Assembly (NCBI GenBank): GCA_014905635.1
Contig: CM026548.1
Location: forward strand, 620,001 to 684,000
Direction: 5' to 3'
Origin: Scenedesmus sp. PABB004
Taxonomy: Eukaryota
Length of the DNA: 64,000 bases
A program made the position numbers and the translations under genes. The notes under the pieces are model-generated. The model worked only from the letters and a program-made list of their open reading frames with translations, ran no database searches and was not told the DNA's origin. Shown piece after piece: positions 12,301-64,000 of the stretch (positions are counted from its first letter, which is position 1; every line of letters begins with the position of its first letter).

Positions 12301-15300
12301 CGCGGCGCGCGGCACCCGTGGTCGACCCGTGCCCGCGCGTGTGCCTCGACGGCCGCGCCGGCGGCGTGATGCTCGCCGGCAGCGCGGCGCGGGCCGTGAC
12401 GGTCAGCAACGCCGGCGCGCTGGCGGTCGCGTACGACGTCCGGGTGGGTTGCGGCTGCGGGCGCCCCGCCTCGCCGCGCGCGCGGGCCGGCTGCCGGCTC
12501 TGCCCTCCGACGCCGGCCGCTCACCCATTGCAACCACCATCATCATCAGGTCACCGGCCCGCTCGCCGCCACGGCCGAGAGCGAGGAGCCCGACCCAGCG
12601 CGCCCGCTGCCCAACGCCACGCCCGAGGCGCTCGCCGCGCTCGCGGCCGGCGCCGCCGCGCGGAGCTCCCTCGCGGTGGCAGGGTTTCGCGTGACTGGCG
12701 TGCGCGGCGTCGTGCCCGGCTATGGCAGCCTGAGCTTCACCGTGGAGTTCTCGCCCCGCGTCGCAGGCGCGCGCGCGCAGCGCCGCGCCGCGCCGCGACG
12801 CCCCGCGCCGCGCCGCGCCGCCCGCGCGCCGGTCGAGCGCTGCGCGCTGCGCGCCGCCGCGCGGCGCAGGCGTGGTGGAGGTGCCGCTCGAGGTCAGGTT
12901 CACGGCGTCCGAGCGCCGCGGGCTGGTGCTGCCGCCGGTCGCCCTGACCCTCGCCGCGACCGGGCGCGAGCTGCCCGTGTCGGCGCTCACGCCGGTGGTC
13001 GACTTCAAGTGCGGCGCGACAGCCCTGCCGCCGCCTGCGTCCGCGCGGCGCGCGCCGCCGGCGCCGACCCCGGTCGCCGCCCCCGCGCGCGCCGCAGGGC
13101 GGTCGCCTTTGGTCGCACCTTTGCCGCGCCGCTGCTGCTCGCCAACGGGGGCAAGACCGTGATGAAGGCAGCCATTGCTGCGCCGCCGGAGCTGTGCGAG
13201 TGGGCCTCCTTCACGCCAGAGTTTGGGTTCATCCAGGCGCGCAGGCCGCGGCGCCACGGCGCCGCGTCGCTCTCTCGGCAGCACGCAGCCAGCCGCGCAG
13301 CCAGAGGCGCCGCGCCGCGACCCAGCGCCTCGGGCCGCGCCGTCCGCCGCCCGCCCGCCGCCCGCCCGCAGGCCGGCGACACGCTGGCCGTGAGCGTCAC
13401 GCTCAAGCCGGCGCCGGAGATGCTGGCGCGGCTCGCGCGGTTCCGCGTCGCGCCGGCCGGCGCCGACGCCCAGGTGGGCGCGCGGCGCGCGGCGCGCTGC
13501 GCGCGGCGCGGCCCGTGCCCGCCCGCCGCGCCGCCTGACCGCCCGACCGCGCTCCGCGCGCGCCGCGGCGGGCGCAGGACGTCTTTGAGGTCCCGCTGCA
13601 CGTGGGGGTGCCGGGGCAGACGCTGCCCGTGCCCGTCCGCCTGCGGTTCCAGCCCACCACGAGCGAGCTCGTCCTGGCGCCGGCGGTGCTCGAGTTTGGC
13701 CGCGTGCCGCTGTCTGAGGCCGCCGGCGCGGCGCTCACGCTGACCAACCCGGGCCTGCTGCCGCAGCGCTTCAGCTTCGGCGCGCGCCTGCCGCCGGGGC
13801 TGAGCCTGCTCCCGAGCGCGTGGGGCCGCGTGCTGCCGGGCGAGACGCTCACGCTCCTCGCGACCCTCCAGCCGCCCATCGCCGGGCCGCAGCGCTTCAC
13901 GCTGACCTGCCGCACCCTGGCGGGCCGCGCGGCCAGCATCGAGGCGCGCTGCGAGGGGCTGGCGCTGGACGTGGCACTGTCGCACAACACGATCGAGGTG
14001 CGCGGCGCGCGGCGCGCGCGCCGCGGGCGGGCGGCCGGCTGCCCCTGGCCGGCGGCCGGCCGCAGCCGACGCGCGCGCGCTCCTCGCGCCCACCGCGCGC
14101 AGTTCCCCGCGACCGCGGTGGGCGACGCCGCGAGCGCGTCGGTCGTGCTGAGCAATGCCAGCGCCGACACGGCCTACCTGTTTGAGCTGGGCGTGCCACC
14201 GGACAGCTGGCTGCAGGCACGGCACGCGCGCGGCGCGGACAAAGAGCACCGCAGCGCGCCGTGCGCGCTGCGCAGTGACCGACGGCGCGCCGCCCGCCGC
14301 CGCGCGCCGCGCAGCTCACGCCGCGCGTGGGCTGCCTCAAGCCCGGCGCCAGGCTGCGGCTGCAGGTCGATTTTGCGCCGCCGGCGTCGCTGATGGCAGC
14401 GGAGCAGGGCGCCGGCAGCAGCTGGCGCTGGTACCGCGAGTGGCTGCTGCCCTGCCACATTCGGGCCGCAGCGCGGGCCGAGGTGGACGGCCAGCAAGGC
14501 GACGGCGCCGCCGGCGCCTGCGGCAGCGCCGGCAGCGCGCAGGCCGAGGTCCTGCACCTTGCCTTGACGACGTGTGCAGTGGCGCCGCAGCTGGAGCTCG
14601 CGTCGCCCCAGCTGGCGCGGCCGGCGGGCAAGGGCTACGCCGTGCTGGACTGGGGCGCGCTCCCGGTCGGCGAGCGCGCGACGCGGCAGCTGGTCGTGAC
14701 CAACCACGGTGTGGCCTGTGGCGGCAGCGCGCGGGGCAGCGCCCAGCGGCGGCCACGCGACGCCCCTGCCCCGCCCGCCGCGCCGCGCGCAGGCCCTGAC
14801 GCCGCGGCGCTGCGCGCCGCGCCGCTCGACCCGGCGGGCCCCTTCTCGGTCGCCGCCGCGCTGCGCCCCGCGCCCGGCGGCGGCGGCACCGCCAGGGTGC
14901 TGCTCGCATTCGCGCCGGGCGCCTGCAGCGAGTTCCAAGAGATGCTCACGCTCCAGTGCGCCCCGCCTGCGCCCGCCGGCCAGCCAGGGGCCCGCGTCAG
15001 CCGCGCCCCGCCGCGCATCGCGCTGACCGCCCCGCTGGCCCGCAGGTCGGCGGCGGGCCGGCTCCGCGTCGCGCTGCGGGGGCGCGGCATCGCGCCCAGC
15101 GTCGCGGTCAGCCCGCCCGCCGCGGCGGCCGCGGGCGGCGGCCTCGCCTTTGGCGACGTGCTCGCGGGCGACCCGGCGCCGCGGGAGCTGCGATTCACGC
15201 TGACCAACACCTGTGCGCGTCGCGGCGGGGCCCGGCTGCTCGCGCCGCGCGCGGGGTTGCGCCCTCCTCTGCGCGGCGCGCGCGCGCGCCGCGCCGACGC

Positions 15301-42816: not shown

Positions 42817-45800
42817 TCACGCCCGGCGCAGCTGCGGCTGCTGCTGCGGCGGGCCCTGGCCGCCCCCCGCGGCGCCCCCCTCCTGGTCGGCCTCCTCCTC
42901 CTCGGCCTCGATTTTGGCGAGGACGCGCGTCGCGCGCGAGAGCATGCGCTGGCTGCGCAGGCAGAAGCTCGCGCTGTGCAGCTCCTGCAGCTCCTGCAGC
43001 CGCCGCCAGAGCGGCGGCGCGGGGAGCCACTGCAGGCTCGACATCGCCCACAGCGTCATCGCGAGGTGCGCGGGCGTGAACGACGCGAGGTGCGCGGCGA
43101 GCTGGTCGTCAAAGGCCACCATCCACGCCTCCGCCGGCGTGTAGTGCAGCGTCGCGAGCGCCCACAGCGTGTTGGCGAGCGCCTGCGGGCCGAAGCTTGG
43201 CATCTGCGCCGCGGCCGCGGCCGCAAAGACGTCGAGCCAGGGCTGCGGCGGGCGGAACTCGAGGCGCGCGAGGCTGACCGCGAGCATGGAGAGCTCCTGC
43301 GCCGAGAAGCCGGACATGCGGACCTGCGGGGGAGGCAGAGGGAGGAGGGCGGGAGGAGGGCGGGAGGGAGGAGGGCGGGCGGCGGCGGCGCGGTCGGTCG
43401 CCGGAGCGGCGGGGCGCGCGAGCGCAACGGCAGAGCGCGGCGGCGGCGCGGGCGGCCCGCAGCCACGGCGGCGGCTCGGCGCACGGCCCGCACCTGCGTA
43501 GCCACCAGCAGCTTCACGACCCAGGCCTTGGGCGGCGGCGTGGCGCTGTTGCCGACGGCCCACATGAGCATCGAGAGGCCCTTGGGGCTGAGCTGCCGCG
43601 CCTGGCTGAAGCAGTGCTGCAGCGCGGCGCCCATGAGCCGCAAGTCGGGCTGGCCGCGCAGCCGCGCGAGCGCCCAGAGGCTGACGGCGAGCTCGTTGGG
43701 CCCGTACTCGGGCAGCCGCGCCGCCATGAGGGCGCAGCACTCGCGCAGCAGCGCCTGCGCGGCGCGGTGCGGCGCGGCGCGGCGCGCTGTGAGCTGGCGC
43801 GGGGCGCGGCGCGGGGCGCAGCTGGCCTGCCTGGGCGGCGGCCCCGCGGCGCGGCGGGGCCTCGCGGCGGCGGCGGCGCACCCGCTCGGCCTTGCAGTTG
43901 AGCACCGCGAGCGCCCAGAGCACGTTGGTGAGCTCCTGCGGCTTCATCGCCGGCGCGGCGGCAAACACGTCCTCCTGGTACTTGGACAGCCAGTCCCTGC
44001 GGTGTGAGCGAGTGCCGTGACGCAGGCGTGCGTGAGCGCACAGGGGCGGCGGCGAGCGCTCGCGACGGCAGGACGCGGCGGCCAGCGCGCGGGCGGGCAC
44101 GCTGCGGGGCGCGGGGGCGCGGCGCGCGCGCGCGCACCGGTCCGGGCGGTGCCCGAGCTTGGCGAGCGCCCAGCCCAGGTTGGCGAGGTGCTGCGGCGAG
44201 GGCGCGCGCTGCGCCTGGCGGCGCCCGACCTCACGCAGGTGCTGCGCCAGCCACGCGGGCTCGGGCGCCGTGCCGAGCGACGCGAGCGCCCAGAGCATGT
44301 TGGTCAGGTCCTGGCTGTTGGCGCCGCCCATCTGCCGGAAGCTGGCGACCTGGAAGCTTGCCAGCCACTGCCCGCCCGGCCGCACGCCGCGCTTGGCGAG
44401 GCACCACAGCCACTGCGACAGGTCGCGGCTGGACGCCGAGCCGAAGCAGCCGCGCGTCGCGGCGAGCCAGCCCTCCATCCACGCGCGGGGGATGGCCAGC
44501 GCCGTGCCGCCGCCGGCGTCGGCCGCGGCAGCGGCGCTCGCCGGCCCCGCCATGCGGACCTGGCTCCACAGCAGGATGCTGAGCTCTGCCGGGCCCGCCA
44601 GCGGCAGCAGCGGCAGCGACGCCGCCTGCAGCAGCGCCGCGAGCTGCGACAGCGCGTCGGGCGCGCTCCCGCCCGCGCCGTCGGCCGCCGGCGCCGACGC
44701 GGAGCCAGACAGCTGCCGTGGCGGACGCACCGGCGACGGCGAGCGGCTGCCGCCGCGCACGCGCACCGGGGACGTCGCCCTGCTGCCGCCAGCGCCAGCT
44801 GCAGCGCCGCCACCCGCCGCTGCGGGGGCCGCGGCGAGGGCGGGCTCGGTCGCGCACAGCAGGGCGGTGGTGTGCATGAGGCCGGCCAGCTCGTAGATGT
44901 TGAACGCCGGCCCGCCGTCCGCCTGCTCGCCGCCCGGCGCCTGCTGCGCCTGCAGCAGCGCCGCCGCGCGGGCGAGCCCCAGCTCCAGCAGCTCCTGGCC
45001 CTGCCGGCCGCGGTTGTTGAGCCGCGCCAGCGCCCACAGCACGTTGGAGAGGCCCTGCGCGGTCAGCGCGCCCACGCCGCGCTCAAGCAGCGGCTGGCAC
45101 GCGTCGACCACCCACTGCTGCGGCGGCTGCACGCCCAGCCGCGCCGCCGCCCAGAGGCAGTTGACGAGCGCCTGCGGCGTCATCGCCGGCAGCAGCATGC
45201 GGCTGGCGGGCCAGAAGCTCGCCAGCCAGGCTTTGCTGGGCGTGTGCTCGAGCACCGCGAGCGCCCACAGCGTGTTGGCGGCGCCCTGCGGCGTCGCCGC
45301 CGCGGGGTGCGCCGCCGGCGCGGCGAGCAGCGACGCCATGCACGACGCGACCGGCGCCACGCCGAGCGCCGCGAGCGCCCACAGCGTGACCGACACGCCC
45401 TGCGCGCTCATGCCGCGCGCCGCGACGCGCTCGAGGTGCTGCAGCAGCTGGTTGAGCCAGCCCGCGCTCGGGCGCTGCCCAAGCGTCGCGAGCGCCCACA
45501 GCGCGTTGCTCACGCTCTGCCCGTCCCAGCCGCGCAGCGCGCTGCCCTCCGCCGCGCCCAGCAGCGCCGCGCCGGCGGCGGCGAGCGAGTTGGCCGCCGC
45601 GCTGCCCTCCGCCGCGGCCTTGCTGAAGCTCGCGGCTGCCCACAGCAGCGTCGCGAGGTCGCGGGGGCTGCCGGGCGCCATGATGCCGCGGCTGCTCACC
45701 GCCGACGCAAACGCCGACAGCCACGCCGTGCTGGGCTGCACGCCCAGCGCGGCGAGCGACCACGCCAGCGTCGACAGGTCGCGCGCGCCGACCGGCGGCT

Positions 45801-47395
45801 GCGCCGGCGGCGGCGGCGACTGCGCCGACTGCTGCGACTGCGCCGGCTGCTGCTGCGGCTGCGACGGGTGCTGAGACTGCGCCGGCGCGCCGCCGTCCTC
45901 GGCGCGCGCCGCCTTGGCCTGCTGCCGCGCCGCCTGCGCGTGCAGGCGCTCCTGCAGCAGCGCCTGCGTGCCGTCCTGCAGCCACGCGACCGCGTCGGCC
46001 GCCTGCTGCTCCGGCAGCAGCGGCCGCAGCGCGACCAGCGCGTACGCGAGCTGCGCCGCGTGCATGAGCGCGTGGCAGCGCCCGGCCGGCGCGACGGCGG
46101 CGTCGCGCGCCGCGTGCGCCTCGGCCGCGCCGGCCGCGAGCGCGCGGGCGTACAGCCCGCTCACCCACTCGGCGCTCGGCGGCGCGACGGCGACGAGCCG
46201 GGACGCCGCCCAGAGCACGTTGCAGGCCTGGCGGTACTCCAGGGCCGGCTGCGCGGCAATGCCGGCCTGCAGCTGCGCGACAAACGCGGCGACCGCGGGG
46301 TCGGCCGCCGCCTGCTGCTGCTGCTGCTGCTGCTGCGCCGGGGCGGGCGCGAACGTGTGCTGCAGCGCCACCAGGCGCGTGAGGCTGGCGCAGAGGTGGA
46401 TGGCGCTGAGGTGCGGCGCGTGCTCCTGCACGATGCTCTGCACCTGCCGCCAGTGCTCCGCGCGCGTGATGGCACGCGTGATGCCCGCGCCCGCCGCCGG
46501 GCTGGCCACCGCGTCCAGCAGCAGCGCGGCCGGCAGGCCGCCCACGCCCCGGGCGGCGGCGCGCGTGCGTCGCGCGGCAGCGGCCCCAGCAGGAACTGGC
46601 GCTCGAGCAGCTGCCGCGCCGCGACTGCGCCGCCGAGGCCGGCGCCGCCCGGCAGTTCGCCCGCGCCGGGCGCCCAGGCGAGGTCGGCGTCAAACAGCAG
46701 CGCCGGCGGCGCGCCCGGCAGCGCGCCGCGCGGCTGCTGCTGCGGCTGCGCCGCCGCCGCCGCCTGCTGCGGCGCGTCCCGCCGCAGCGGCCGCGGCGCC
46801 TGCGGGTCCAGCAGCGGCCGCTGCTGCGGCCGCGGGCGCAGGCCCGCGATGGTCAGGCCCTCCGCCGGAGCCTCGGGCTGCGGCTCGAGCTTGTGCCGCC
46901 GGAACTGCCGCGCCAGGCGGCGCCGCGCCTGCGGGCCGCGGCGGCGCGCGTGAGCGGCGGCTGCGGCGGCCGCGGCGGCCGCATGCATGTGGCGCTCCGA
47001 CCGGAGCCCCGGCCTCACCTCTGCCGTGTCGTCGGCGCGCACGTCGGAGGAGGCCACGCCCTGCGCGCGCACACACCTGCGGCAGCGGCGGAGCAGCGCC
47101 GCCGGCGGCGCGCGCGGCACCTCAGCGCCCGCCAGGCGCGCCCGCGGATGCCGTAGCTGCTGGCGGCGGCACTGGGGCCGCGGTGCCCCGCCAGGCGGGG
47201 CCCCGGCGCGCCAATGCGAGGCGCCCCGGCGCCGCGGCGCGGCCAGCCACTCGCTGCGCGCAGGGCCCGCCGCCCGCCTCACCGCGAGCGACCGCGGCGC
47301 GTGGTCAGCGCGGAGAGCGAGGATTCCACGTCGCGGCTGGCGGGCAGGCCGCGGCCCGCGCCGCGAGCCAGGCCGGCACCGGCGCTGGCGGCCAT
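42817..47395 (-). CDS. Large octotricopeptide repeat (OPR) protein, probably chloroplast RNA-binding; apparent 1-nt frameshift near 46548
   Basis: Spliced N-terminus MAASAGAGLARG...RSR|CVRAQG (transit-peptide-like), then many ~38-aa repeats of the type PQALVNCLWAAARLGVQPPQQW, SQDLTNMLWALASLGTAPEPAW, PQALANTLWALATLHYTPAEAW. Confidence 0.9.
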
Positions 47396-57680: not shown

Positions 57681-58214
57681 GCCCTGTGCGCCACGGTGCT
57701 TGTTATGCCGCCTTGGGCCCGAGGCACACATAGCCCGCGCCCAGCCGTGCCCGGACGTCCGCCCTGCGGCAGCGGCAGCGGCAGCGGCAGCAGCAGCAGC
57801 AGCAGCGGCAGCGCCGGCCACCAGCTAGCGGGGTCTCGCCGCGCACCTCCCCGCAGCTCTGGCATCCGCCCGCGGCCAGCCGCGCGCACCGCGCCGGTCA
57901 GCGTGCGTCGGCGGCTGGCGCGGGCTCGCTCGCCGCCACGCAACGCGCCGTCGTCCGCTCCCACGCACGGCCAGGCGCGTCGGCTGAGCGCGCGCAGGTG
58001 CGACCAGGGAGCGCTGTTGCCGCGGGCGTGCGCCACATGAGCAGCAGGCGGGCGCAGGGCACGGCGCTGCCGCCGCTGCCGCCGCTGCTGCCGCCGCTGC
58101 TGCCGGCAGCGCAGGCGCCCGCACGCGCCTGGCCTCCGACGCCGCTCGGCCCCCGGCCACGCAGGGCGCGCCCCGGGGGGCCCGCGGCGCCGGCGGCCGC
58201 CGCCTCGGGGGCCG

Positions 58215-58595
58215 ATGTCGGCGGCGCGGCAGGGCGCGCTGAGCACGCTGCAGCTGTACCGCCACATTTTAAGGGCAGCCAAGCACTTCCCGAGCGTGAA
58301 GAAGCAGCGCATCATCGAGCAGATCCGGCAGGAGTTTCGCGAGAATTCGGTACGCCGCCGCCCGTGGAAAGGCGCCGCCCGCCGGATCTCCGCCGCCCGC
58401 GCGCCGCCGCTTGGCGCGACCCACGCGCGCCGCGCGACGCCTCGCCCCGCGCAGGGCGTGGCCGACCCGGACAAGCGCGCCAAGTGCATCGCGGTCGCGG
58501 AGCGGGGGCTGAGCGACCTTCAGGCGTACGCGGCGATGGCGGCCAACGCCGCGGGCGGGGACATGTCCATCACCCTCAAGGGCGCGACCAGCTGA
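58215..58595 (+). CDS. LYR-motif (Complex1_LYR) mitochondrial protein, 2 exons
   Basis: LQLYRHILRAAKHFPS...IRQEFREN|GVADPDK...AERGLSDL; intron 58350-58454. Confidence 0.9.
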   Translation: MSAARQGALSTLQLYRHILRAAKHFPSVKKQRIIEQIRQEFRENSVRRRPWKGAARRISAARAPPLGATHARRATPRPAQGVADPDKRAKCIAVAERGLSDLQAYAAMAANAAGGDMSITLKGATS

Positions 58596-58753: not shown

Positions 58754-59597
58754 AGAGTTTTGCAGTCGCTCTCTGACCCGCAGGCAGCAGCACGCGCCGG
58801 CGCTGGGCAGCCGTGCGCGCCCCGTGCTTCGTTAGTTGGCCGCCAGCATAACCATGCGCCGCCGCGGCGCCCGCACCGTTCGTCGGGCCGCGGCGCGCCG
58901 CGGCGCCTCACCAGCCGCGGCGCTGCTGTCGCCCGCGTGGCCCGCGCCGGGCCGGCCGGCGGCCTGTCAGGGGCACCCAGCCGCCCAGAAGTGCAGTGAC
59001 GCCCGGCGCCAGCGCGCAGACCCCCGCATTCCAGTCCGCGCGGCGTGGCGGCCGCGGGCTGCGCGGACATCGCCGCGTGGCGCAGTGCGGGCAGGCGCCC
59101 GCCCGCCGTGCGGCGGCGGGTGCAGGCATTGGAAAGCAAGCGCTGCAACATGCGGGCCGCGGGCGCGCGCATGCGCGCGCGCGAGGCGCGCCGCCTCGGG
59201 CCGCCGCCGGAGGCGCGCCCGCTGGGCTGGCCCCCGAGCGGCGCGCCCGGCTCGGCGCGCGAGCCGCACACGCACACACACCAAACACGGCACACGGTTG
59301 CTCGCTTGTGCATGCGCGCTTGGTTTGGCGCTGCGCCGCCGCGGCCCGCACCCATGTCGAATGCGGCGCACACACTTCCCGCATCCCCATCTTTCTTTGC
59401 TCAAAGCACGCGCCGTCAATTGCTGCCACAGCCCAGCCCTGCCCCGCGTGCAGATGTGAGCGCGCCGCCGTGGTAACGCGCAGGCCGGGCCGGAGCGCTC
59501 ACACGCCCCTGACGCGAGCCTCCCTCCGGCCGAGGCGCGGGCGCGGCGCGGCGGCCCCCGTGCCGCGCCGCGCCACGCGCGCCGCGCCGCGCCCGCC

Positions 59598-62500
59598 TCA
59601 CCTCGGCGCCGGCTGCGCGCCATTCGGCGCCGCGCCGGCGCCGGCCCTGCCCCCGAACGGGCAGCGCGGCGCCGCCGCCGCGGGCGGCGCCGCGCCGCGC
59701 GCGCCGGCGACGCCGTGCGGGCCAAACGCGCCGCCGGCCGCGGCGGTGCTGTCGCCCCACGCCGCCGAGCCGTCCTCGTCGCCGTCCTCCTCCTCGCCGA
59801 CCGCGCCGAGGCGCAGCGCGCCGCGCCAGTCGCCGCCCGTCGACTCGCTGTGCTCCAGGTAGATGCTCTTCTCCGTCGCATAGAGCGCGTCCCCGCTGCC
59901 CGCGCCGTCGGCGGCGGTGTAGCCCTCCGCGGCGAGCTCCTCCTCCCAGCTGCAGCTCACGGTGCCGGGCCGGCCGCTGGGCGCGGCGCTGCCGCTGCCG
60001 GCCGACCGCGCGCCGGGCGCCGCGAGCCCGCCCGGCGTGAGCGGGCCGCCGGTGCGGCTGCCGGTCGCGCCGCCGCCGCCGCCGCCGCGCAGCGCGCCGG
60101 CGCCGCCCGCCGCCGCGAGGCGCGCCTGCTGCTGTGCGGCGAGCGCGGCCTGCTGCTTCACGCTCATGCTGTGCTTGCGCGTGAGGTGGGACTCTATGTC
60201 ATAGTAGGCCAGCGGCGCCGTCGAGCAGCGCAGCGCCGCGCGCATCGCCTGCAGGCGCGTGAGTATGACGTCCAGCGTCGGCCTGGGGCAGACGGCGGGC
60301 GGGTTGGTTGGCGGGCGGGGAGGGCGGGCGGGCGGGAAGGAAAGAGGGGAGGGCGGGCGAGTCGGGGCGGAGCGGCGCGCGGCCGGGGCAGGGGCAGGGG
60401 GGCGAAGGAGCGGCAAAGGGGCTCGGCGGCGGCGGCGCGGCGCGCGCACCGGTTGGCGGGGTTGGGGTCCCAGCACTCGGCGGTCAGCGCGGCGTAGTCC
60501 TCCGGCGCGTCCGCCGGCCACTCGGGGCGGCGGTGCAGCAGCGTGATCTGGTGCCCCAGCAGCGCGCGCGGGATGCCGCGGAATACGTGCTTCGCCGTGT
60601 ACAGCTCCCACAGCACCTGCCGCACGTGCGGCGGCGGAGGCGCGGCGCGGCGGCGGCGCAGCTCGTCGGCACGTGTCGGCGCGCGCGGCTCCGGCCGGCC
60701 GGGCGTGCTGCGGGTCGGCGCGAGACCGCGGCGCGCGGCGCGACGCGGCGCGGCGGCGCGGGCGCACCATGCCGAGCGCGTAGACGTCGGCGGCCTTGCT
60801 GATGTGGCCCTTGATCATGATCTCGGGCGCCATGTGCGTCATCGTGCCCTGCGCGACGCGCACCGCGGGCGCTCGGCGGCGCGCGCGGCCGCGCGGGCCC
60901 GCCGCCGCCGCCGGCGCCGCCGCGCGGGCGCGCATCACACGCCCCCGCACGCGCCGGCCCTGCCCGCCCCGCCGCCGCTGCGCGCCTGGAAGGCGTTTGA
61001 GAGGTGGGTCTCCATGTGGTCCATCTTCACCGCCAGCCCAAAGTCGGCGACCTTGCTCGTCGCGCCGCGGCCCTCGCTGCCGCTCGACTTGAGCATGATG
61101 TTGCGCGCCTGGCGTCGGCGGCGGTTTGGTGCGACACGGCACAGCGCGGTTTAGGTTGAGGTGAGTGGGAATGAGCAGTGAGCGACAGTGGCGCGGCGCG
61201 CGGCGGGGGCGGGCGCGGGGAGCGCGGCGGCGGGCCCGAAGCGTCGGGGCCCGCGCAGCGGAGAGCGCGGCTGCCAGACCCGCCCCCGCGCCGCGCGCCG
61301 CCGCGCCGCCGCGCCGCGCCGCGCCGCCGCGCGCGCCTTGAGGTCGCTGTGCAGCACGTTGCACGTGTGCAGGTGCGCGACGGCGGTCGCGATCTCGACC
61401 GCCGTGTCGAGCACCGCCGGGTAGTTGAGCCCCCCGTCGGGGAGGTTGAACGCGCCCAGGTCGAGCGCCTCGCGCAGCGACCCGCGGTCGCAGTACTCGC
61501 ACAGCAGCCGCACCTGCGCGCGCGGGCGGGCGGGCGTGGCCGCGCGAGCGCGTGAGTGTGCGAGCGTGTGTGTTGTGTGTTTGGGGCGGGAGGAGGGAGG
61601 GAGGGAGGAGCGAGGGAGGGAGGAGGCGGCGCGGGGCGCCGCGCGGGCAGGCGGCGCACCTCGTACGAGTGCACGCCCGCGTTCTCGCCCGCCGTCATGC
61701 CACCCGCGCCCGCGGCGGCGGCGCCGCCCGACGACACGCCGCCGGTGCTGTCGGCGGTGCTGCCCATGAGCAGGAGCTGCTTCTCACTCGGTCCCCCGCG
61801 GCTGCTGTTGTCCTTGAGGGGCTTGATGTCGTACGTGTAGGTCTGCGGCGGGGACGCGCGGCGAAGGGCGGGCGGCGCAGGGTTGAGAGTTGAGGTCAGC
61901 CGGGCAGCCGCGTGGGCGCGTGGGCGTGTGGGCGCGCTGACAGAGACTTGCGAGCGCCTGCCCGCAGCCCCGTGCGCGCGCCGGCCGCCGCGGCGTCACG
62001 GGCCGCGGCGGCAGGCGGCGGCGGCGGCGCGCCTGCATGATGTTGGGGTGACTCAGCGCCGACGAGATGGCCGCCTCCATGATCGCCCTGCGGCGCGGCG
62101 CGGCGCGGCGCGTTGGGCGAGGCGGTGGGGCGCGCGGTGCTGCAGTCGCCCGCGCAAGTCTGCCCCTGAGCGCGGAGGGGGGGGGGCAATGCAACGCCTC
62201 GCTCACATCTTCTCGCGCTTCTCCTGCCCGCTCATGGCCTCCGGCAGCACGATCGTCTTGATCGCGACCACGCTGCCCTTCCACAGGCCCTTGTAGACCT
62301 GCAGAGGGGACGGACACATCGCGGCGGCGGCGGGCGGGGTCGGCGCGCGCGCCGCGGCCGCGGCGGCGGGCGCGCGCCGCGGCGCGAAGGCCGCGGCGCC
62401 GGCGGCGCGCGGGCGCACGGCCTGCGTGTGACCGCCCGCGCGGCGCACCTTGCCGTACGTGCCCTCGCCGAGCAGCTCGAGGCACTGGATGTGGTTCTCC

Positions 62501-63838
62501 TCCGCGGTGGAGATGTTGGCGCGCGCGAGCTCGCGCCGCACCGCCTCGATGCGGTCTGCGCGCGGCGGTTAGGGGGCGCGCGGGTCAGCCGGCCGGCCCG
62601 CCACGCAGGCGGCGGCGGCTGCGGTGCAGCGCGCGGCGCGCGGCGGCGCGGCGCGGCGCGCACCCAGCGCCATGCTGTGCCGGTTGCCCATGCCGCTGCT
62701 GCCGCTGTTGGTCGCGGTGCCGCCGCTCGCCGCGGGCTGCGTGCCGACGAGCGCGGCGGCCTGGCTCTGGCAGTCGGCGATCGCCGCGAGCGCCTGGGGG
62801 CTGTTCTCGCCGGGGCCGCAGGGGAAGCAGGCGATGAGGCCCGACATGCGGTAGAGCAGCGCCTCGGCGCGCGCCTTCTCCTCCTCCAGCCACGCCGTCG
62901 TGCTGGCGAGCTTGTCGTTCGCCGCCTGCGCACGCAATCGCGGGGCGGGGCGGCGCGGGGCGCCGCGTGGGCCGCCGCCGCCGCACACACGCGGGCTCGC
63001 GCGCCGTGCGCCGCGCCAGCCCCCGGGTGGCCTGACGAGCCGGGCCAGCTTCTCTCAACGCACGGGCACTCCCTCGCACGCGAGCGCTCCCGTCCGAAGG
63101 TTGCTCCCCCATATATACAAACCACTACACCGCGCCGCGCACCTGCAGCTCGAGCGTGAGGCGCTCGTACTTGTCCTTGAGGTCGGCCTCCGCGGCGCGC
63201 TGCTCCGCGAGCAGGATGTAGTCGGCGCTGATGTCGTGCAGCGGGATGTCGCTCAGGAACACGCCGCTCGCCTGCGCGGGCGGGCGGCGGGCGGCGGGGC
63301 GTGTTAGTTGTTAGTTTTCGCGTTGTGTTGCGTCACGGCGACTGATGCCACGTCTGTGTGGTATTGAGGCGGGCGGCAAAGGCAGCGCGGCGGCGCCGGG
63401 GCCCTCTGCTGCCCCCTGCCCCTCCCTGCAGCGCCCCGCCGTGCCCCGTGTGCTCGCCTGCATCTCGCCGAGCCCGCGCACGCGCGGGGAGCCGAGGAAG
63501 ACGAGCACGCGGCACGGCGACGACGCGCCTGCCGGGCGGGCGGGTGGGGGGCGGGCGCGCGGGCGGCGGCACGCGCGGCGGGCGTGAGCGGCGGAGGAGC
63601 GAGGGGCCGCAACGCACGCCCCCGCGCGCGCGCGCGCGCGCGCGGGACAGAGAGGCGAGACAGGCGGCCGCGAGCGCGGAGCGGGCCCGCCGCGCGCCGC
63701 ACCCGGCAGCGTGACCTCTGTCGGCAGCATCTGTCCCTTGAGCGTGACGAGGCTCGCGCGCGCCTGCAGCACAAAGTGGTTGTTCGTGTGCAGCGCGATC
63801 GCGGCAAAGTCGAGCTGCACGTGCGCGGGGTGCTTGAA
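59598..63838 (-). CDS. HNOBA (sGC-type PAS + signalling helix) fused to TKL/Raf-like Ser/Thr kinase; 5' end lies beyond the window
   Basis: In-frame spliced exons: LKGQM...VLVFLGSPRVRGLGEMQASGVFLSDIPLHDISADYILLAEQ...LEEEKARAEALLYRM, then LGEGTYGKVYKG, VAIK, HPNIMQ, EYCDRGSL, HSDLKARNIML, DFGL, GTMTHMAPE, DVYALG, CWDPNPANRP. Confidence 0.9.
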
Positions 63839-64000
63839 CTGCACGCGGGCGGGCGCGGCGCGGGGACCGGGGCGCGCGAGTGGGCGTGGGCGCGGCGCGA
63901 GGGGGCTCAGCGCGGCGCCCGCGCGCAGCGGCCGCCGCAGCGCAGACGCCACGGCGGCCGCCGCCGCCGAGCCCTCCCGGCAGCCGCCGCCGCGCGCCCA

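Follow-up and report, generated by a model that had tools for sequence, protein, structure and literature searches.

Among the known proteins closest to the one reported here are the beta1 subunits of soluble guanylate cyclase (sGC), such as human GUCY1B1 (6jt0_B, 8hbf_B) and its Manduca sexta counterpart (6pas_B), in which a haem-binding H-NOX domain is followed by the PAS-like HNOBA domain, a coiled coil and the cyclase domain. The nearest sensor modules are found in green-algal H-NOX cyclases of the same algal radiation, including those of Chlamydomonas reinhardtii (CHLRE_16g649050v5, P0013), Edaphochlamys (P0011), Volvox and Astrephomene, the characterised relatives of which are CYG11, CYG12 and CYG56. 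In the haem-regulated eIF2alpha kinase (HRI), a Ser/Thr kinase of eukaryotes, activity depends on bound haem, with a reported response to nitric oxide (NO) and carbon monoxide (CO). In bacteria a haem H-NOX is paired with a phosphorylating enzyme, as in Nostoc (Alr2278; PDB 2o09 and 4iae), Vibrio and Shewanella, and the Nostoc H-NOX works with HNOBA-containing histidine kinases as partners. Regulation of histidine kinases by H-NOX is stated in the abstract of PMC4436077. The gene presented here lies on the minus strand (63838..59598) of a 64,000-nucleotide stretch, hereafter the window, from the chlorophycean alga Scenedesmus sp. PABB004 (order Sphaeropleales by taxonomy look-up; assembly GCA_014905635.1, contig CM026548.1, positions 620,001 to 684,000 of the forward strand). 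It joins an sGC-type sensor module to a Ser/Thr kinase in place of the cyclase, which makes it a candidate gas-sensing protein kinase.

Thirteen exons spliced from the window DNA join into one frame that stays open for 755 codons. When exon 3 was searched against longer proteins, six matched; the best, 100% identical to that exon, is a deposited protein of 1037 residues with the source name 'Gucy1b1 [Scenedesmus sp. PABB004]' (P0001). The spliced product agrees with residues 253-1006 of P0001 in 754 of 755 positions, the sole difference lying at the C-terminal end. Residue numbers below are those of P0001; the exons for residues 1-252 are located beyond base 64000, outside the window, and the H-NOX part encoded there is known from the deposited ab initio gene model and from orthologues only. 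Along the chain come H-NOX, the HNOBA/PAS-like domain for dimerisation, a signalling-helix coiled coil of 60 residues, a flexible linker that includes a short helix, a non-RD Ser/Thr kinase of probable tyrosine kinase-like (TKL) type and a disordered tail. No match to Guanylate_cyc (PF00211) was identified on P0001 by Pfam at E<=0.01. As it has no cyclase domain, P0001 is not a guanylate cyclase and the deposited name is wrong, the resemblance of the N-terminal 390 residues having evidently led to its transfer.

The sensor module is collinear with that of sGC beta1 and keeps the proximal His, the YxSxR motif and the distal Ile. The alignment of residues 1-391 with residues 1-397 of human beta1 (6jt0_B, E 2.8e-55) has no large gaps, and Manduca beta1 aligns as well, while the H-NOX part alone matches Nostoc Alr2278 with an E value of 1e-32 among the sequences of solved structures. 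Pfam places HNOB at residues 3-158 (145.3 bits, cut-off 25.5) and HNOBA as a match split in two, of which the better part covers 282-391 with 106.1 bits; exon 3 alone (43 residues) scores 28.0 bits for HNOBA against a cut-off of 23.4. The original prediction, made from the letters of the window, of an HNOBA domain and coiled coil running into a complete kinase is borne out by these matches and the alignment to beta1, and the H-NOX domain that it suggested seeking upstream of the window is present in the deposited model with His103 and Y132-x-S134-x-R136 intact. His103, Tyr132, Ser134 and Arg136 align on beta1 His105, Tyr135, Ser137 and Arg139, and from established sGC knowledge we take the first to be the proximal haem ligand and the other three the propionate-binding triad. 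The residue that aligns on beta1 Ile145 at the distal position is Ile142. O2-binding H-NOX domains need a distal Tyr at this position, and its absence from P0001 therefore favours NO or CO and disfavours O2.

An AlphaFold2 (AF2) model of P0001 built on a 107-sequence alignment has a mean predicted local distance difference test score (pLDDT) of 69.9 and a predicted template modelling score (pTM) of 0.51. The H-NOX, PAS-like and kinase folds are confident, with a single long helix at 335-397 and a further helix at 447-467. Confidence is low at 400-404 and 423-450, and disorder is predicted for an insert in the kinase N-lobe (552-590) and for the tail from residue 839. A Foldseek search with this model places sGC beta1 chains at the top (8hbf_B, E 9.5e-26, 404 columns, 33% identity), followed by kinase domains with target TM-scores of about 0.8. 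When residues 195-400 were modelled as a homodimer the score was 0.46, and the best of three controls gave 0.00; at least 93% of contacts agreed between runs and the pLDDT was 77. Of proteins solved as pairs, 21 of 30 attained the mark that this model passed, and of those solved as single chains, none of 23. Since sGC complexes are already solved, the pass may merely reflect that likeness. Unlike the alpha/beta heterodimer of sGC, P0001 is on this model probably a homodimer.

The kinase domain is matched by both PK_Tyr_Ser-Thr (137.8 bits) and Pkinase (136.9 bits), each in two stretches with the best at 595-790, and no Pfam match to HisKA or HATPase_c was found on P0001. The motifs GEGTYGKV, VAIK (K501), MEAAISS, HSDLKARN (D654), DFG (D678) and APE are all present, and the glycine loop, VAIK Lys, helix-C Glu, HxD, DFG and APE are intact in each of the six members that have a complete kinase domain. 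Judged by these residues the kinase of P0001 is catalytically intact, and it is predicted to be active. The Ser before the catalytic Asp (HSD) makes it a non-RD kinase; HSD or HGD is found in all eight relatives with a readable motif, and HAD in P0025 of Raphidocelis. Its best solved relatives are MLK4 (4uya, 100.9 bits) and MAP3K9, which agrees with the TKL label first given to it, but EGFR, Src and TAK1 are close behind, so that 'TKL-like' is a reasonable description and not a rigorous classification.

The point at which the cyclase and kinase proteins part is sharply placed. In an alignment with algal cyclases and one animal cyclase, similarity extends through '...EEK.R.DALLYRM', the algal sensor modules resembling P0001 even at this DALLYRM helix end, and the cyclases then begin their catalytic domain ('LPADIA...'); in P0011 and P0013 Guanylate_cyc (~200 bits) follows LLYRM directly. 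P0001, unlike these proteins and unlike sGC beta1, continues after LLYRM into a linker and the Ser/Thr kinase. In the kinase proteins the order past LLYRM is a conserved SGLIACFP, a low-complexity linker of variable length, a conserved RIEAVRREL helix and the glycine loop. The earlier proposal that the cyclase output was replaced by a kinase at the usual junction holds in that similarity ends at LLYRM, but the kinase is not directly attached, a low-confidence linker of ~55 residues and the RIEAVRREL helix lying between.

The window has a G+C content of 79% and the gene structure is eukaryotic. All 12 introns of the sensor-kinase gene end in AG, eight starting with GT and four with GC, and their lengths range from 108 to 228 nt. 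The spliced coding sequence has G+C fractions of 0.69, 0.54 and 0.975 at the first, second and third codon positions (GC1/2/3), and GC3 lies between 0.91 and 1.00 in each of the 13 exons. Because GC3 is high in every exon, including exon 4 with its low-complexity linker, the frame is considered coding throughout; the pattern is a strong coding signal against the G+C background of the window. The four GC-AG introns are located at 63457-63272, 62032-61843, 61336-61109 and 60985-60849 (minus strand), a high share for one gene. The in-frame minus-strand exons proposed by the original prediction are thus recovered, with 97.5% G+C at third positions; its first exons were placed correctly, and the fourth (~62924-62665) was off by one base at each end, the true limits being 62925-62664. 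All of the HNOBA and kinase motifs that it named occur in the spliced product (LKGQM, VFLGSPRV, FLSDIPLHD, LLAEQR, LEEEKARAEALLY, GEGTYGK, VAIK, HSDLK, DFG and APE).

All exons are on the minus strand. The first exon in the window (63703..63838, residues 253-298) encodes the middle of the HNOBA/PAS-like domain (FKHPAHVQLDF...LKGQM), is bounded in phase by an AG acceptor and a GT donor, equals P0001 and aligns with sGC beta1. Exon 2 (63458..63528, residues 298-321) holds the HNOBA strand with VLVFLGSPRV and has a GC donor, and exon 3 (63143..63271, residues 322-364) encodes the end of HNOBA (FLSDIPLHD, LLAEQR), recognised by Pfam, and the start of the long coiled-coil helix of the AF2 model. 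The junction exon 4 (62664..62925, residues 365-451) carries the remaining signalling helix (ANDKLASTTAWLEEEKARAEALLYRM), the conserved SGLIACFP and the low-complexity linker; its GC1/2/3 is 0.65/0.61/1.0, and both of the low-pLDDT stretches around the linker (400-404 and 423-450) belong to it. Exon 5 (62449..62555, residues 452-487) encodes the pre-kinase helix DRIEAVRREL and the glycine loop GEGTYGK, exon 6 (62207..62298, residues 488-517) beta3 with VAIK (Lys501), and exon 7 (62033..62087, residues 518-536) helix C (MEAAISS, Glu522), with a GC donor. Exon 8 (61660..61842, residues 537-597) contains beta4 and the low-complexity N-lobe insert, where the Pfam kinase match is split in two stretches and pLDDT is below 50 at 552-590. 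Exons 9 to 12 are each matched by Pfam kinase models on the single exon. Exon 9 (61337..61513, residues 598-656) runs from the hinge to the catalytic loop HSDLK (Asp654, non-RD) and exon 10 (60986..61108, residues 657-697) encodes the catalytic-loop ARN, DFG (Asp678) and the activation segment, both with a GC donor; exon 11 (60768..60848, residues 698-724) carries the APE motif (GTMTHMAPE) and exon 12 (60450..60616, residues 725-779) the C-lobe to CWDPNPAN. Exon 13, the last of the spliced model (59598..60282, residues 780-1007), encodes the end of the kinase (RPTLDVIL) and a disordered Ala/Gly-rich tail of ~200 residues, in which a conserved S-I-Y-L-E-H patch is found and pLDDT is below 50 at 839-1037 in the deposited numbering.

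The spliced model stops at a TGA at 59600-59598 (minus strand). The deposited model bypasses this stop through a GTGAGG donor (59598-59605, minus strand) that overlaps it, and continues into an extra terminal exon at 58832..58925 (minus strand) that supplies the last 31 residues of P0001. This exon is doubtful, with GC1/2/3 of 0.81/0.74/0.81 against the GC3 of 0.975 in the rest of the coding sequence; from this flat codon-position G+C it is judged spurious, probably a non-coding annotation artefact, and the stop at 59600-59598 is preferred.

Word-indexed searches for relatives listed 45 proteins at E<=1e-5 with P0001 as query and 27 with P0051, and a full scan of 1.84 billion representatives contributed the best 150 of 829 matches at E<=1e-30; in the word-indexed searches only the ~8000 candidates sharing most words were scored. 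HNOB, HNOBA and a kinase were confirmed together by Pfam in nine proteins (P0001, P0007-P0010, P0051, P0052, P0196 and P0197), the named sources being Scenedesmus sp. PABB004 (P0001), Chlamydomonas sp. UWO 241 (P0051) and Haematococcus lacustris of the Chlamydomonadales (P0197). All domains are found in one transcriptome ORF in P0007 (EukProt, 'ORF type:complete', 766 residues, 71% identical) and in one reading frame of an MMETSP transcript in P0196 (958 residues). As both are transcriptome-derived, at least two relatives carry sensor and kinase on a single mRNA. P0012 has HNOBA and the kinase with its N-terminus cut, and P0016, P0062, P0091 and P0130 have HNOB and HNOBA followed by kinase N-lobe fragments only and look like incomplete gene models. 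A survey across chlorophytes had been put forward as a check of the architecture; the sensor-kinase order recurs in the nine proteins, and the whole architecture is conserved in two orders of Chlorophyceae, Sphaeropleales and Chlamydomonadales. The nearest cyclases are HNOB-HNOBA-Guanylate_cyc proteins of Chlamydomonadales, with 46-55% identity over the N-terminal 38% of P0001. Other outputs also occur on this sensor. P0190 (representative library, 1507 residues) has HNOB and HNOBA followed by PDEase_I (219.9 bits), another output swap on the same sensor, and precomputed Pfam annotation lists HNOB, HNOBA, Guanylate_cyc and PDEase_I in P0211 and P0212 of the diatoms Bacillariaceae sp. and Cylindrotheca closterium (1646 and 1656 residues).

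Part of the junction region is shared with kinases that have no H-NOX. In many of the top kinase matches the alignment to P0001 sets in near residue 356 or 430, and what is shared is the last part of the coiled coil, the linker and the RIEAVRR helix. A 49-residue segment (residues 352-400), encoded at 62810-63181 of the window and split by the intron 62926-63142, was compared alone with 212 collected proteins at E<=1e-3. It matched 24 of the 156 proteins without a sensor-module match; two of these are short H-NOX-kinase fragments, leaving 22 kinases with 40-58% identity to the segment. Five shuffles of the segment and its reversal gave no match at the same threshold among the 212 proteins. In the 22 chlorophyte kinases (P0053-P0111 and others) the helix segment lies ~100-150 residues ahead of the kinase domain, and the order is the signalling helix, an 'L-I-x-C-F' motif, the RIEAVRR helix and a non-RD kinase. 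The kinase domains of such helix-linker-RIEAVRR proteins, which include Raphidocelis subcapitata Rsub_01082 (P0025), P0053-P0067 and among these P0063, are 45-54% identical to that of P0001. Their N-termini are diverse and, unlike that of P0001, not H-NOX/HNOBA: P0063 has CHASE, P0104 has a lipase-like region, P0025 is receptor-like by eye and most have no Pfam match. A signalling-helix-like element is, from these matches, common to algal sGC-type sensors and a chlorophyte kinase family, and the kinases with the helix and RIEAVRR look like an undescribed modular sensor-kinase family. Because the same coiled-coil segment characterises the wider family of algal kinases as well, the domain join is probably in or beside the shared signalling helix. 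The signalling helix was defined in a 2006 paper (PMC1592074), in the main text of which a term search found neither 'protein kinase' nor 'Chlamydomonas'.

The history of the fusion was approached with two trees. A sensor tree of 32 modules (10 kinase-linked, 21 cyclase-linked and 1 phosphodiesterase (PDE)-linked; 386 columns, careful search, P0009, P0012, P0196 and P0197 left out) was rooted on three animal-type rows, and a branch with 100/100 support parts algal from animal modules. The kinase-linked modules form two groups, P0001/P0007/P0008 (97/95) and P0010/P0051/P0052/P0062/P0016/P0130 (100/98), with the long-branch P0091 apart, and all of these lie in a polytomy with algal cyclase groups. 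A quick tree of 49 kinase domains recovers the same two groups (SH-aLRT 99 and 93) beside non-H-NOX kinases, again with poor resolution. Recovery of the same groups by both trees fits old fusions inherited vertically; a single origin is neither shown nor excluded by either tree.

The product of the gene is probably a soluble dimer that serves as a haem-based gas-sensor protein kinase, in which gas changes the kinase output without cGMP. A diatomic gas would bind ferrous haem, most likely NO since the residue matching beta1 Ile145 is Ile and not Tyr, with CO possible. As in sGC, a rearrangement of the H-NOX and PAS-like domains would be relayed to the coiled coil, and the change there could alter how the two kinase domains are placed relative to each other or how accessible they are, and with that their autophosphorylation or phosphorylation of substrates. 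The outcome would be a cGMP-independent gas-to-phosphorylation pathway. Transmission may need SGLIACFP and RIEAVRREL to dock on each other or on the kinase.

Several observations weigh against this reading. No rigid connection links coiled coil and kinase, AF2 confidence being low across 400-450 and the linker of low complexity and variable length among orthologues; sGC-style transmission from helix to catalytic domain is therefore not simply transferable. Non-RD kinases are often not controlled via activation-loop phosphorylation, which weakens the version based on trans-autophosphorylation. The haem His is replaced by Tyr in P0130, and YxSxR reads YIAPR in P0091. According to PMC8728061, CYG12 and CYG56 of Chlamydomonas show no NO sensitivity in vitro and the homodimeric CYG11 is activated by CO more than by NO, so that NO is an unsafe assumption for an algal H-NOX. 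The flexible and poorly conserved linker, the insensitivity of CYG12 and CYG56, and the 22 kinases without H-NOX, which indicate that the helix works with other N-termini, would all suit a sensor module retained only for dimerisation or for sensing haem, redox state or thiols, in which case the kinases would be paired constitutively by coiled coil and PAS-like domain without gas control. This explanation is considered unlikely: of the 11 relatives having the region, 10 retain the haem His and 10 YxSxR, across lineages less than 50% identical, which is unexpected for a mere scaffold, and the HNOB score of P0001 (145 bits) is as high as those of true cyclases (133-141 bits).

The preference of CYG11 for CO, together with the position of the kinase sensor modules among algal cyclase modules and far from animal ones (the 100/100 branch), would also fit a gas-sensor kinase with CO or O2, and not NO, as its physiological ligand. 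It is an improbable variant, as Ile142 at the beta1 Ile145 position speaks against O2; CO and NO are not discriminated by sequence. It is very improbable that the kinase functions chiefly by pairing with H-NOX guanylate cyclase subunits, forming a heterodimer through PAS and coiled coil and phosphorylating or otherwise regulating the cyclase instead of signalling by itself. The 46-55% identity of this region to Chlamydomonadales H-NOX cyclases and the obligate heterodimer of paralogous subunits in animal sGC would allow such pairing, but the homodimer model passes its controls, and no H-NOX cyclase from PABB004 was found in the two word-based searches, where P0001 is the only named H-NOX protein of this alga, a weak point given the ~8000 candidates scored. 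That the fusion is a gene-prediction artefact, in which a truncated sensor and a neighbouring kinase were merged, is barely conceivable. The deposited model is ab initio and its last exon looks spurious; however, the helix end and linker lie within one exon (62925-62664), and the intron that follows is of the GT-AG type, spans 108 nt with no room for a promoter and would bring an in-frame stop at 62569-62571 if retained, which makes a two-gene reading untenable. The complete architecture is also found in the two transcriptome ORFs of relatives and recurs in nine proteins from independent sources, and division of the region into two genes was rejected on the grounds of the single-exon junction, the short intron and these ORFs.

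Set beside the described systems, the candidate gas-sensor kinase P0001 is by its sequence an sGC with an exchanged output, the logic of which is like that of the bacterial H-NOX/histidine kinase pairs and of HRI and the architecture like neither. The bacterial systems are separate polypeptides with two-component histidine kinases, in contrast to the single chain and eukaryotic-type Ser/Thr (TKL-like) kinase of P0001. The haem region of HRI is not an H-NOX, and HRI lacks the PAS/coiled-coil module and belongs to a different kinase group. No description of an H-NOX/HNOBA Ser/Thr-kinase fusion was found in full-text literature searches, although the green-lineage NO survey of Astier et al. 2019 could mention such proteins. 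This is in line with the expectation at the outset that no characterised eukaryotic protein has this architecture and that database entries might exist. Such entries do exist, as sensor-kinase proteins are already in public databases unrecognised, P0001 under the name 'Gucy1b1' and its relatives labelled hypothetical. A term search of a paper on Chlorophyta receptor-like kinases (PMC12757656) found none of 'HNOB', 'heme' and 'CHASE'. Both 'HNOB' and 'Pkinase' occur in PMC2754085, the title of which is about kinase-like animal proteins that are not kinases.

Three other open frames in the window were annotated. Adjoining the kinase gene downstream on the opposite strand, a frame at 58041-58595 (plus strand) has a Complex1_LYR match of 38.5 bits and is probably the gene of a small LYR-motif mitochondrial protein. 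The frame at 13539-14390 (plus strand) has strong GC3 and matches the CFAP74 fourth Ig-like domain (58.8 bits) and ASH (30.6 bits), both of which are cilia/flagella-associated families. At 42820-46689 (minus strand), a 1290-codon frame with a GC3 of 0.92 matches FAST_1 (FAST kinase-like) with 55.6 bits towards its C-terminal end and is probably the gene of an RNA-binding organellar protein of FASTK/OPR type.

Perception of NO in photosynthetic eukaryotes is an open question, for which P0001 provides a concrete candidate for cGMP-independent gas signalling. According to PMC8728061, none of the more than 1000 green-lineage species surveyed has a full NO/cGMP cascade, and clear NO sensitivity is lacking in the Chlamydomonas cyclases that have been characterised. 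P0001 would show whether sGC transduction, in which the coiled coil reads the movement of H-NOX and PAS, is able to control a catalytic domain of unrelated type, and this bears on the design of gas-switchable kinases. It is tentatively suggested that P0001 could be the founding example of a eukaryotic H-NOX Ser/Thr kinase family across Chlorophyceae, in which NO or CO at the haem would lead directly to phosphorylation with no cGMP, and that the shared helix may mark a wider set of modular algal sensor kinases with exchangeable H-NOX, CHASE and other inputs. An apparently haem-competent H-NOX together with an intact kinase could let these algae turn a gas signal directly into phosphorylation.

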